64,000 nucleotides of DNA from Macrostomum hystrix. Taxonomy: Eukaryota; Animalia; Platyhelminthes. Below are positions 7,823 through 12,400 of this stretch, in pieces (within the stretch, counting starts at the first letter, position 1; each line of letters starts with the position of its first letter). The translations under genes and the position numbers were made by a program. The notes below the pieces were generated by a model. The model made no database searches and was not told the origin of the DNA. It saw nothing but the letters and a program-made list of their open reading frames with translations. The stretch spans positions 310,001 through 374,000 of the forward strand of contig CATNEN010000034.1 of the NCBI GenBank assembly GCA_950097015.1, read 5' to 3'.

Positions 7823-8719
7823 GGAGAAGTAGTTTCCACTGCGGGCGCCCCAGAGCGCTCACTCGGTCGCGCTAGGGGACCAAGCCCTCCTCCAAGTCAT
7901 TTTGCTTAGCGGGCTACATCTTCTCACTAACTGTTTTTTTTCTTTTTCGATCAAAAGCCATCTTGGCGCCAAAAATCCACTCAAAAACTATTATAATCTA
8001 GCCAAAAACCACAAAAATACACTTAGTGGGGTGAAACTCCCCTTCGTAAGAATTCTCACATGAAATATTTTCGTATTAACTGCCGCAAACTAGGGTTCGC
8101 ACCTACTTTTCTTAAAGTTGCTTATCTCACATGTTCTCTATGTTTGGTTTCGGGAGTTTAGCTATGCCGGCTTCTATTTAGGGGGGTATACCAACCCGCT
8201 AAAGTGAGCGGGGTGGTATGTTTCGGGAGTTTTTCTTAATGTTTGTTTAAAGAGTGGGCGGTTGTAAATCAAGGAGCCGGTGGGGTTAGGTATTCAAATT
8301 CTAGGGGAGACAATCTGGAGGTTTCAATGAACCACAGATTGAATGATAATTTTTCTTTTGTTCAGGCTAGAAAAGACAAAAAAGGAGACATTATTTAGGA
8401 GCCAGAAGTTAGCAGCTGGGAGTTCAAATCTAGGTACCTAGGTAGTAATAAATCGTATGAATTAAGGTTCCAGACGTTTCAAAAACTCATTAACAGTCTA
8501 TCAGTTAGTTTTTTCGGTTACTAGGCGGTTGTAAAACTTGAGCAGTAATGTTTCATCGAGGAAAGAAGTCGGACACAGATAGCGAATTCTCGTTTTACAT
8601 TTCCAATGGTGGCGTTTGCTTTATTCGTATAGAAAGTTGGGTTTATTTGTACAGGGCACAATGGCAGACACGCATATGGTTGGGTTCAGATTAACGAGTC
8701 AGCAAGTGACCTTGGGTTG

Positions 8720-9356
8720 TCACAGCAGGAGAACCAGTACCAGCAGTAGGATGGCCGCGAACGCCACTCCGGCAGCCAGGGCCATGCCCAGCGGGCCCCG
8801 AATGAAACTAGAAACGATGGCCGCCAGGTCGGCCTCCCGGCCTTCGGGCACGTCTATGTCTGCAAAAACAAGGTGGAGGAGTAGTTTAGTAAGGCGCAGT
8901 GGCGTTCTGCAGGCGGAAGTTTCAAATGGTGACATCCAGAGTGGGGGGGGAAGTGTAGGTTTATCAATGCCAACTTACTCATCACAAACGAGACAGAGAT
9001 GGGTTCATCTGACGCGGTCCGACGCCGAGGTTCCGGCTCGTGGAACCCGAGTGGATAGCTGCTGGAAGCGAAGAGTGGTGTAGTCCGATTAGGTAATGGA
9101 AGAATAGTGGTGGCAATCGCAAACTAAATAACTTTCAATTTAATCAATCACTAACTCAGGAAGGGTTCCTTTTTCGCAGTTTGGGGTCGGGGTCAATTTC
9201 AGATTCTCGGGATAAATGGCGTGCCGTGGGTAGGGGGGGACTCTAGTTATCCTAATTATTATGACATAACCCTCGCAATTATCCTTAATAACCGGCCTTG
9301 GGGGGCCGAGTAGAAGCAACAACTCACCTTTCGTCTCCAGGTTGCTGCTGGGCCAT
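8720..9356 (-). CDS. Predicted three-exon antisense gene for an 83-aa tail-anchored membrane microprotein (exons 9356-9328, 9061-8979, 8859-8720)
   Basis: Donors AAAG|GTGAGT and TGA|GTAAGT. Acceptors TCTTCGCTTCCAG| and CTTGTTTTTGCAG|, the latter with TACTAAAC upstream. Phases 2/2 and 1/1 are compatible. Product: MAQQQPGDESSYPLGFHEPEPRRRTASDEPISVSFVMNIDVPEGREADLAAIVSSFIRGPLGMALAAGVAFAAILLLVLVLLL*. Minus-strand AATAAA at 8647-8642 and 8625-8620. Confidence 0.68.
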
Positions 9357-9485
9357 TTAGTCGGACGAACGAATAGGATATCGAAGGCTTATGATTACAC
9401 ACTTCGGTAGTTTATGATTGATAGATTTCGGAAAAACTGGGCTCTGTAGTGGCTGAGGATAGCAGGAGATGGCAGGCTTGAGTTT

Positions 9486-9494
9486 AAAGGGGCG
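9486..9494 (+). other. Polypurine tract (short)
   Basis: AAAGGGGCG sits immediately before TGAAGTGGTA, the inferred 3' LTR start. Confidence 0.6.
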
Positions 9495-12400
9495 TGAAGT
9501 GGTAGTTTATATAGCACCTAAGTTTAGGGGTTAAGATGGCGGGAATGCCAGCCAATAGGAGCAAAGTGGGAATTCCGGGCAAGACCAGTTTAGGGGGCCC
9601 ATGGTAACAGTTTAGTTGTTGGGGCCCTGACCTTTTCGGTGAGAAGACGCCTCGGCCGGCAACAGCATCGCAAGCGGCCTGAGCAGCGGTTTCCCCAGCT
9701 GCGACCAGCTGCAGCGCCGATTGGGCCGCGCGCAACGGCTAGGCAACCGGCCCGGCGAGCATTCCCGGGCACGGCCAGCCGGAAACATCTGGAGCGCGCG
9801 GCGAATCAGAGGCTACCAACGCCCGGCAACAGGGTCGGTGAGGACGCAGAGCAGGCCAGCCAATCTGGAGCCACCTGGTGAGAGCACGGCCGGACCCTCG
9901 GACTTAAGGAGAAAACGGCCGGAGCCTCCCAGGATTGCGCAACCGAGACCAAGCCGGGCAGGGAAAGACGGGGACAGCTGCAGCCACCTGGAGGAGAAGG
10001 CGAGCCGGGACACGGCACCCCGGGACAGCGAGAACAACTCTAACTCAGCCGGAATGCGCACCCACCTCCCCTCAGGACTCTATCCCTTAGTCGCTAGGGG
10101 CGCCGACCTTTTACACTCTCGCACAAAATCTATTTATAGCAGTATTGTTACGTACGATAACCTAGGATTTCTTCTCTAGCGGTTTTCTTCTTAGGATTCT
10201 TTACGGTATGCAGTAGGGTAATGTAAGTTTTTGCCCCCTCGATTCGCGGGACACCCCACTACTGACAGTAAGCACGTAAGTGCCTTACGTGAAAGTGAGC
10301 GAAGGTGGAGTGATGTGGAGTGTGCTGCGGAATCGAGTGGGGTTGTGAGCCAGCCAAATTTTTCCATTTTTTTTAGCAAGTTAATAATCGCGACCCACAT
10401 AGCAGCTGGCCGCAGAACACCATCATTAATCTTAGGGCCAGACATTGGGCGGAGGTGAATTAAGTAGCCGCCGATTCCCTTTGTCTCGGATCTGTCTAGT
10501 CCCCTGTAGGAGTGACTGATCGCGGCCATAGAAATACTGTATGGACTAGTTTAGGTCATAATTCCCCTCCAAACCGCGATCAGATTGTCGGGAGCACTCA
10601 TGCGTTTAGAGTGAGCTTTAATTCTTCATGTCCCTCTTCTTTACTGTGACCCGAGCCGGGGCTCGATTATGACCTTTCCCCCTTTAGATACATGTACCGA
10701 CACTATAGGCAGGTCGGCGCCTGCGCTTCCCATATCCCGGCGGGATCACAATCATTGGCCGACTGCCGGCAGACGCTCCTAGTGGGGCATCTGGCGATTC
10801 TCGCCGCCGCTTCAGTGGGCAATTGGGGTGGCATTATGCCGACCCGATTCCTCGCTGACAGGCCGGCGAGCATGTGGGTTATTTTGATGAATGCGAGGTT
10901 GGCGGAGCTGCAGGACTATTTAAGAGAGCGCGCTGCGCTGCCCCTAGAATAACCTTCCCAGGACACCTTTAACCTTCCCAGGACACCTTTAACCTTCCCA
11001 GGACACCTTTAACCTTCCCAGGACACCTTTAACCTTCCCAGGACACCTTTAACCTTCCCAGGACACCTTTAACCTTCCCAGGACACCTTTAACCTTCCCT
11101 CCACCCTGGACGGAAACCTACCCCCCTTCCTGTCTGGTCCCGGAACACGGTCCGTGGACTCTCCCCCTTCTAGGCTAGCACCTAGTCCCTGAGCCTAAGG
11201 CTCCAGAGCATAGCAGCAGGCAACTACCTGCTAGTGCCCTTAAGCGCAAGCCACCTCCTTAGGTGCGCTCCAAATTGAGCCTTGAGCTCCCTGCAGTCTG
11301 GCCCCTTGCCAACTGTACTCAGCAATCCCTCACCTTTTCTCCTGTTCATTTGCATTCCCCCGCGAGATCGACGGCCTGCAGCCTGTCAGCCAGCGTAGTC
11401 AGATAAGTAACCCGCGCAGCGGACTTTTATTGCTATCCCTAAGGGATTTACTATTTAGCTAGTGGGTAAAAGGGCAAGGGCAGGGATTTGATTTAGCCTA
11501 ATAAAACTATTAAATCACAGCTTATCTAATTTATTGGGCAATTTAATAACAACTTAAATCCTTTTTACTATGCATTCCACTTTCTCTTATTTTATCGTTA
11601 GACAGCCTCGATCATGAGTGGCTAACTTATTAGGGGGATGGGCTCTGGTGATGCCTAGCTGAAAGCTGCGGCAGGAGGATAACTGTGAGCGCGCATGAAA
11701 GTAATAAGGAGCTAGGGATTTGCGAGTAATATGCGGAGCGTAGCATGTGTTTCTCTGCTAGGGGTGGGGGAATTCCTTGGCGGGTTTTTCCTCTCTTTCT
11801 GGCAGATCAAGGAGTGCGTGTCAACCTCCCTTGTCAATTAGTGTTTCCCTTCTGTTCCCCGCCTCTCGCTGCCGCCGCCATGGGAGCGAGGGGTGTGATC
11901 TAATAATCACCGCTTGCATAATCACTCAGCCAGTGTTCTGCTCAATCTCTCCTGCCTCTGATTTCCTCATCTCACACAGATTCGGATTTGCTAGTTATTT
12001 AATGTGTAGGCTGCAATCTAATGTAAGGAATGTGTCTAATGTCTCATGAGTAGGATTCTGGCTATGGATTTCTCATTCGGGTTCGGAGTACCACCTTTCT
12101 AGACCACTGTAGCGCAGTTTCAGGAATCCCCTTGTGAGGCGTGACTCGATCCATTCTGGGGTTCTCACCCTAGTCTAAAACGGAAGTTACAGAATGCTCT
12201 ATTTTTCGGCTTGTCTAAGATCTGTGTGACAAACTGGGAGCTGCGAGCTCCGGGGACCCAAGTTCCCAAATGTCTGCGGTGGCGACGCAGGCGCATTGGG
12301 TGGTGGCGCTACCTTCGATCATTATCCGCTTTGCCGATAGCCTTTCCGCATTTCTAAGACAAGGGCCTAGGCCGAGTCGACCACTGCTACCAAAGTTAGG

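Follow-up and report, generated by a model that had tools for sequence, protein, structure and literature searches.

A probable spliced antisense gene for a predicted tail-anchored microprotein in a Ty3/Gypsy retrotransposon of Macrostomum hystrix

In a stretch of 64,000 nucleotides (nt) from the flatworm Macrostomum hystrix (contig CATNEN010000034.1, positions 310,001 to 374,000; the whole stretch is referred to as the window), positions 1-12766 are occupied by a single long terminal repeat (LTR) retrotransposon of the Ty3/Gypsy type, and the minus strand between its integrase and its 3' LTR holds a three-exon frame with exons of 29, 83 and 140 nt. A comparison with diverged copies indicates that this antisense frame is very probably a coding gene under purifying selection, and the feature itself is real and well supported at the DNA level. 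Its product would be a protein of 83 residues that is predicted to be tail-anchored, and we tentatively propose that it acts as a membrane adaptor for the exit of particles from the cell.

Structure of the antisense gene

The gene is preceded by a candidate TATA box, which is the sole TATAWAW on the minus strand between 2367 and 10137, and the ATG at 9356 is the first one downstream of it (Table 1). When the three exons are joined, the resulting frame is free of internal stops, and use of the second CAG at the acceptor of intron 1 gives a product of 82 instead of 83 residues. Exon 3 has a GC content of 65%, and the GC content at third codon positions is 0.70 in the gene as compared to 0.74 in gag-pol. 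The AATAAA motifs at 8647 and 8625 are the only ones on the minus strand of the internal region, and the poly(A) signals of both strands face each other over an AT-rich spacer; the sense signal at 8447 is a possible internal end of the gag-pol mRNA. Within the 7.1-kb internal region, the donor motif GTRAGT is absent from the sense strand (3.4 expected) and occurs three times on the antisense strand, and two of these are the donors of the gene. In intron 1, the predicted folding of the conserved part (9240-9327) is no stronger than that of its shuffles.

All of these elements, that is the TATA box, the ATG, the exons and introns, the 83-residue frame and the two AATAAA, had been listed in a preliminary description of the window and were recovered at the same coordinates. 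It had been added there that a six-frame translation misses the gene, which is not entirely so: an unspliced frame of 71 residues, opened by an intronic ATG at 8935 and running into exon 3, is visible in such a translation. On the sense strand, a frame of 166 codons covers 8583-9083.

The region 7823-9513 was searched on both strands for three-exon models with GTRAGT donors, pyrimidine-rich YAG acceptors and a product of at least 60 residues, criteria that were set after the gene had been seen, and a single model with two acceptor variants was returned. In dinucleotide shuffles, again searched on both strands, any three-exon model was found in 2 of 2000 cases, and a model including a hydrophobic segment in none (0/2000).

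Selection in diverged copies

The comparison is based on four public contig runs from one study, which behave like DNA, and one and the same run holds near-identical pieces as well as several diverged versions of the stretch. Differences in 8690-9120 were counted from two of the four runs, which gave 31 differing places, 21 of them exonic and 10 in intron 2. Thirteen of the 21 exonic differences are synonymous, as compared to 6.2 expected given the mutation types (P=0.0015), and none introduces a stop. The eight replacements comprise L/F, F/I, F/L, M/T and D/N together with three that affect codons 28-29, which belong to the polar linker. In exon 3, with 9 synonymous and 5 replacement differences, the frame of the model is the best of six (9/14, runner-up 6), and in exon 2, with 4 and 3, it is narrowly the best (4/7, runner-up 3); the best frames of the two exons differ genomically, with an offset that matches the 119-nt intron between them.

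The three indels in 8690-9120, each of 1 or 2 nt, are all intronic, and in the wider contig comparison the 12 indel rows inspected, out of 32, likewise all lie outside the coding exons. Other copies carry 1-nt indels at 9094 and 9299 in intron 1, as well as insertions of one and two nucleotides (8942/8943) and three T-to-C changes within the pyrimidine tract in intron 2. For the more diverged copies, the retention of splice sites was read by eye from loose-end alignments. Some of these copies lose the alignment at the stop codon while keeping a stop, some just inside intron 2 while keeping the acceptor, the pyrimidine tract and the branch-like core, and some one base past the ATG. Others keep acceptor 1, the residues FIRGP and the in-frame hydrophobic tail, often with different codons, and donor 1 is kept in two diverged versions. 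The conservation of frame and splice sites across copies, which had been named beforehand as a check, is found in the excess of synonymous changes, in the intronic position of the indels and in the retention of donor 1 and both acceptors. Downstream of the gene, diverged versions rejoin the spacer of the element at joints 8572, 8595 and 8617, and therefore selection acted in the context of the element.

Two other frames in the same stretch were considered and rejected. One variant has lost the ATG at 8935 that opens the unspliced 71-residue frame through a change in it. The insertions at 8942/8943 interrupt the sense frame 8583-9083, in which, moreover, only 8 of the 21 differences would be synonymous.

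Several points weigh against a conserved coding gene. The indel pattern alone reaches only P=0.11, and the density of differences is not lower in the exons (21/223 nt) than in intron 2 (10/119 nt). All informative sites come from a small number of linked contigs, and changes close to the end of a contig escape detection, so that the P value of the synonymous excess is optimistic. There are contigs in which 8552 is followed by 9247, and further ones that lack an alignment over 9319-9484 or 9341-9547; we regard these as family members with deleted or too-diverged parts of the gene, and a part of the family may accordingly lack it. Finally, no joint matching either intron was found in the four DNA-like contig runs. 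Nevertheless, the selection seen in the diverged copies argues for the spliced antisense gene with a C-terminally anchored product that the preliminary description had postulated.

A high-depth variant was also observed whose sequence no longer follows the window to the left of 9547, a part that includes the TATA box. It represents either a derivative without the gene or one in which the gene has diverged much further.

The predicted protein

The part formed by residues 1-48 is polar, carries a net acidic charge (10 D/E versus 4 K/R) and includes the short kept motifs SYPLG and EPRRR, and an alternating hydrophobic stretch spans junction 2. The hydrophobic moment peaks at residues 48-58 with 1.66, which places an amphipathic helix at about residues 47-58; it is followed by RGP and then by 23 apolar residues (61-83) up to the stop. 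The Kyte-Doolittle mean over 19 residues reaches 3.1, with its maximum at 65-83, and windows above 1.2 occur only from residue 47. AlphaFold2, run with the exon 3 peptide as a single sequence, returned one long helix with a predicted local distance difference test value of 90.

The protein thus has a lone hydrophobic segment at its extreme C-terminus and no signal peptide. Proteins of this kind are inserted post-translationally as tail-anchored proteins and expose their N-terminus to the cytosol. As there is no signal peptide and nothing follows the tail, the 83-residue protein is predicted to be tail-anchored, with its N-terminus in the cytosol. This topology, judged from the hydropathy scan, agrees with the earlier prediction that it differs from the FAST fusogens, for neither a luminal extension nor a polybasic tail was found. 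A role as viroporin is disfavored, since the tail contains no polar residue. The YPLG motif may bear a non-canonical resemblance to ALIX-binding late domains.

For homologue searches, the 45-residue exon 3 peptide served as query. A word-index search among proteins of 46-147 residues gave no match in 85 candidates at E up to 10, a full HMMER scan of 1.84 billion representatives gave none at E up to 0.001, and the best Atlas score, 0.81, was at chance level. At E up to 10, neither of exons 2 and 3 nor the 71-residue frame matched any Pfam family, which includes TRP28 and other known domains, and a degenerate motif around FIRGP was found in none of the viral and metagenome contigs. The product is therefore apparently a new protein, and the suggestion that it represents a new type among accessory proteins stands for now, as no homologue of the exon 3 peptide was found.

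The host element

The order reverse transcriptase (RT), RNase H and integrase with gag upstream identifies the element as Ty3/Gypsy, and its Pfam matches are RVT_1, RT_RNaseH, Integrase_H2C2 and rve. It carries two LTRs, a primer-binding site, which we take to be tRNA-Leu-like, and a purine tract. The 5' LTR starts before position 1 of the window, and the left end of the 3' LTR at 9495 is set by the purine run and TG without a match to the start of the 5' LTR. From the identity of the LTRs over 2366 nt it follows that the insertion is recent.

Table 1. Features of the antisense gene and of the retrotransposon that carries it (window coordinates)
Feature	Position	Strand	Basis or remark
TATA box candidate TATATAAA, begins 9513	9506..9513	-	positions 12-19 of inferred 3' LTR
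Coding exon 1, 29 nt, begins with ATG and ends in AG before donor GTGAGT	9328..9356	-	sequence
Intron 1, 266 nt, NAGNAG acceptor	9062..9327	-	269 nt with second CAG
Coding exon 2, 83 nt, then GTAAGT	8979..9061	-	encodes SYPLG, EPRRR and start of alternating hydrophobic stretch
Intron 2, 119 nt, GTAAGT, pyrimidine tract, CAG	8860..8978	-	branch-like TACTAAAC at 8891
Coding exon 3, 140 nt	8720..8859	-	amphipathic helix, RGP, hydrophobic tail, stop
Two AATAAA poly(A) signals	8620..8647	-	at 8647 and 8625; 73 and 95 nt past stop
Sense AATAAA facing the antisense pair	8447..8452	+	sole plus-strand AATAAA in 7.1-kb internal region
5' LTR, visible part	1..2366	+	100% identical to 10401-12766
Primer-binding site after 5' LTR	2368..2385	+	sequence
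gag fused to RT and RNase H, without protease	3676..6450	+	frame starting 3676
Integrase frame (H2C2, rve)	6344..7822	+	frame differs from RT-RNase H
3' LTR, about 3.27 kb	9495..12766	+	left end from purine tract plus TG

The assignment of a gag-like region in the 3676 frame is based on Atlas features (score 0.91). Gag runs directly into RT with no protease in between. The pre-RT segments of 142 relatives, among them 73 with the catalytic motif D[ST]G[AS], were combined into a protease profile, and among the 403 frame pieces of 1-12766 its best match had E=2.2, which is chance level; with no match in any frame, the earlier statement that the element lacks a protease is confirmed. A search of the open-access literature did not find protease-less Gypsy elements. 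The frame change ahead of the integrase may be real or an assembly error. Given the lack of protease, the frame change and the identical LTRs, this copy probably moved with help from another element. As regards an env gene, the only sense frames above 100 codons in 7823-10400 are those of 166 and 178 codons, which have no Pfam match. Gag has no N-terminal glycine for myristoylation.

The closest RT relatives are only about 50% identical, and the nearest named ones are from animals. In an RT tree of 68 sequences (67 of 239 matches plus the window sequence), the element groups with two Macrostomum lignano proteins, with a support of 0.56 that is too weak for assigning it to a clade. No gag relative was present among 240 fetched proteins; locus searches were negative for the integrase in metagenomes (0 of 91 stretches) and for RT in viral contigs (0 of 2). 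Rfam gave no match in 1-12800, and no tRNA genes were found.

A strong RNA stem is predicted in the spacer behind the integrase (8160-8290, plus strand; z = -3.4, none of 200 shuffles as stable), one of four stretches that were folded, and it may possibly represent a packaging or 3'-end signal; the contigs of the high-depth variant also cover this region. The LTR itself contains a pair of GTRAGT donors in sense orientation together with a poly(A) signal (10223, 10276, 11500). Just upstream of gag, at 3540-3630 (plus strand), there is a long tract of pyrimidines with AG at its end, so that a gag-pol mRNA with a spliced leader is possible. The LTR also contains a short-period tandem array (550-699 and 10950-11099), and the 1.3-kb leader a duplication of 42 bp (2774-2815 and 3140-3181). 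Beyond the element, 12765-28650 holds duplicated 2-3 kb segments with 88-98% identity that carry minisatellites of roughly 22, 25 and 33 nt, and the insertion site of the element is the border of one of these segments. In 35580-61000, a G-rich repeat of 15 nt is present in about 950 copies, which form many arrays with a repeated spacer in between, and the long stop-free frames in that region probably stem from this repeat.

Relation to known systems

The published systems are compared here as far as the parts of the cited papers that we used describe them. Antisense open reading frames (aORFs) in the interval from pol to the 3' LTR have been described as gene23 of maize Grande, in rice RIRE2, as TRP28 of Retand and in fungal Boty (PMC7264820, PMC11963269), and the products of such plant and fungal Gypsy frames are nuclear or unknown (PMC7264820, PMC11963269, PMC4408406). 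An antisense coding sequence between pol and the 3' LTR that is kept across family copies defines this class, and the gene described here would belong to it, since it resembles these aORFs in its Ty3/Gypsy host, position, orientation and conservation. The plant and fungal aORFs have their own promoter and a function that is unknown, and the present gene has a candidate promoter. Orientation alone is therefore less new than it may seem. In contrast, the plant and fungal aORFs are long and encode nuclear or DNA-binding products, whereas a membrane anchor of 83 residues is predicted here; the present gene has two introns, whereas the word "intron" is absent from the two aORF papers (PMC7264820, PMC11963269); and the named RT relatives of the element are mostly animal, unlike the hosts of those aORFs.

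Among retroviruses, human T-cell leukemia virus type 1 (HTLV-1) HBZ and the APH proteins of HTLV-2/3/4 are accessory proteins made from spliced antisense mRNA off the 3' LTR (PMC10186651), and thus come from spliced antisense accessory genes at the 3' LTR like the one described here. They differ in belonging to retroviruses and in their TATA-less promoter, and HBZ is a nuclear regulator of 31 kDa (PMC10186651). The ASP protein of human immunodeficiency virus type 1 (HIV-1) is an antisense-encoded membrane protein with a promoter in the 3' LTR (PMC10186651) and in this respect resembles our candidate, but its membrane segments are predicted to number two, it contains PxxP and cysteine triplets, its promoter is TATA-less and its virus possesses env (PMC10186651); no sequence link was found.

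The sORF2 proteins of the Drosophila MDG1 group and the FAST proteins of reoviruses share with the present protein a short length, a single membrane pass and an amphipathic motif, and sORF2 likewise comes from LTR elements without env (10.1101/2025.03.14.642691). The preliminary description had assumed spliced proteins of this type in insects, which is not correct, because sORF2 is encoded in sense orientation on unspliced transcripts and mostly upstream of gag (10.1101/2025.03.14.642691), as opposed to the antisense gene with two introns found here. Furthermore, the membrane segment of sORF2 is central, its ectodomain comprises about 30 residues, its cytoplasmic tail is basic, and it often has the N-myristoylation motif MGxxxS/T (10.1101/2025.03.14.642691), whereas the protein described here starts with Met-Ala-Gln and its stop follows directly after the hydrophobic run. 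ORF3 of the bdelloid rotifer elements Vesta4 and Vesta6c is likewise a non-env membrane frame behind pol of an invertebrate Gypsy element, but it has 220-230 residues, two membrane segments, cysteines and an RXXR site, and the part of the paper used mentions neither introns nor antisense coding (PMC5408684). A term search of the main text of a survey of Macrostomum LTR elements (PMC12801592) found no mention of antisense, intron or protease. In the open-access literature, that is outside subscription papers and repeat databases, no two-intron tail-anchored antisense gene of an animal LTR retrotransposon was found.

Possible function

We tentatively favor, as one possible role, that the tail-anchored protein ties capsids to a membrane and so enables their exit without an envelope protein. 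The left end of the 3' LTR would serve as an outward TATA promoter that is independent of gag-pol. The introns would survive retrotransposition, being antisense to the RNA that is reverse-transcribed; they would therefore stay unspliced in the genomic RNA, and a retroelement could in this way retain a two-intron gene. The facing poly(A) signals at 8447 (plus) and 8647/8625 (minus) would keep the gag-pol mRNA and the antisense mRNA from overlapping. Post-translational insertion would then leave about 60 residues in the cytosol, where the amphipathic helix, which is conserved, may together with the short motifs near the N-terminus bind Gag or membrane-remodeling host factors. The adaptor could thereby dock capsids or recruit membrane-shaping factors, and exit would occur in vesicles or protrusions. 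We favor this role because the gene occupies the env slot of an env-less element, because the juxtamembrane helix is the most constrained part of the protein, and because the bulk of the protein would face the cytosol, where the capsids are.

On the other side, a tail-anchored protein exposes nothing extracellularly and cannot itself be an entry factor, the separate promoter uncouples the expression of the gene from that of Gag, and the antisense accessory proteins of plant elements and of HTLV-1 are nuclear regulators rather than transmission factors (PMC7264820, PMC11963269, PMC10186651; used in part). Nearly as likely as the exit adaptor is that the same tail-anchored protein influences either the host or the cycle of the element itself, for example by blocking a membrane-based defense or stress response, by limiting copy number or by harming element-free cells. 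Such a role would be in line with the candidate promoter and poly(A) signals of the gene's own, independent of gag-pol, with its intactness in a copy whose pol lacks a protease and changes frame, and with a parallel to HTLV-1 HBZ or to small lentiviral accessory proteins, and retroviral antisense proteins are indeed described as regulators (PMC10186651). However, no motif or homologue points to a host pathway, and the regulatory antisense proteins described in the consulted parts of these sources are mostly nuclear and not membrane-anchored.

There is little probability that the gene was captured from the host, kept its introns because it had been inserted in reverse, and is carried along as a passenger. 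Antisense capture would account for the kept introns, and the layout of TATA box, introns and poly(A) signals is an ordinary one, but the synonymous excess is found in diverged versions that rejoin the element spacer, the codon GC resembles that of gag-pol, and no cellular homologue of the exon 3 peptide was found among the 1.84 billion representatives. It is quite improbable that there is no spliced gene at all and that the model arose by chance or reflects a non-coding antisense RNA, the 71-residue frame or the 166-codon sense frame; the support for the gene is at the DNA level and both frames are present in this copy, but the shuffle test argues against a chance model, and the two frames are rejected for the reasons given above. 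Least probable is a fusogen of the sORF2/FAST kind with an extracellular N-terminus that directly fuses donor and target membranes: the size similar to that of sORF2-like proteins (63-107 residues), the single membrane segment, the amphipathic motif ahead of it and the env-less element would fit, but the MGxxxS/T motif is absent, the protein lacks a cytoplasmic tail as well as a polybasic patch past the membrane segment, the N-terminal part has about 60 instead of about 30 residues, and the sORF2-like candidates in the part of the paper used are sense-oriented in 105 of 105 cases (10.1101/2025.03.14.642691).

Significance

The gene touches on two open questions, namely how env-less LTR retrotransposons move from cell to cell and what role antisense accessory genes play, and it offers for both a protein that is small, defined and apparently selected and whose junctions and topology can be tested. 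A blind spot becomes visible as well, because screens that translate open reading frames cannot assemble a gene whose coding sequence is divided among exons of 29, 83 and 140 nt on the other strand; if the interval from the integrase to the 3' LTR were searched on both strands with splicing taken into account, further such genes could come to light. It is conceivable, though doubtful, that the present gene is the first of a hidden animal class of multi-intron antisense genes, which encode tail-anchored microproteins and provide an exit route for env-less elements. If so, antisense storage would let multi-intron genes survive reverse transcription, the exit route would be distinct from Env and from sORF2/FAST, and the class, missed or misread by surveys based on open reading frames, would possibly be widespread. 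Should the protein indeed be a membrane adaptor for capsids, it would represent a third exit strategy next to Env and sORF2/FAST.

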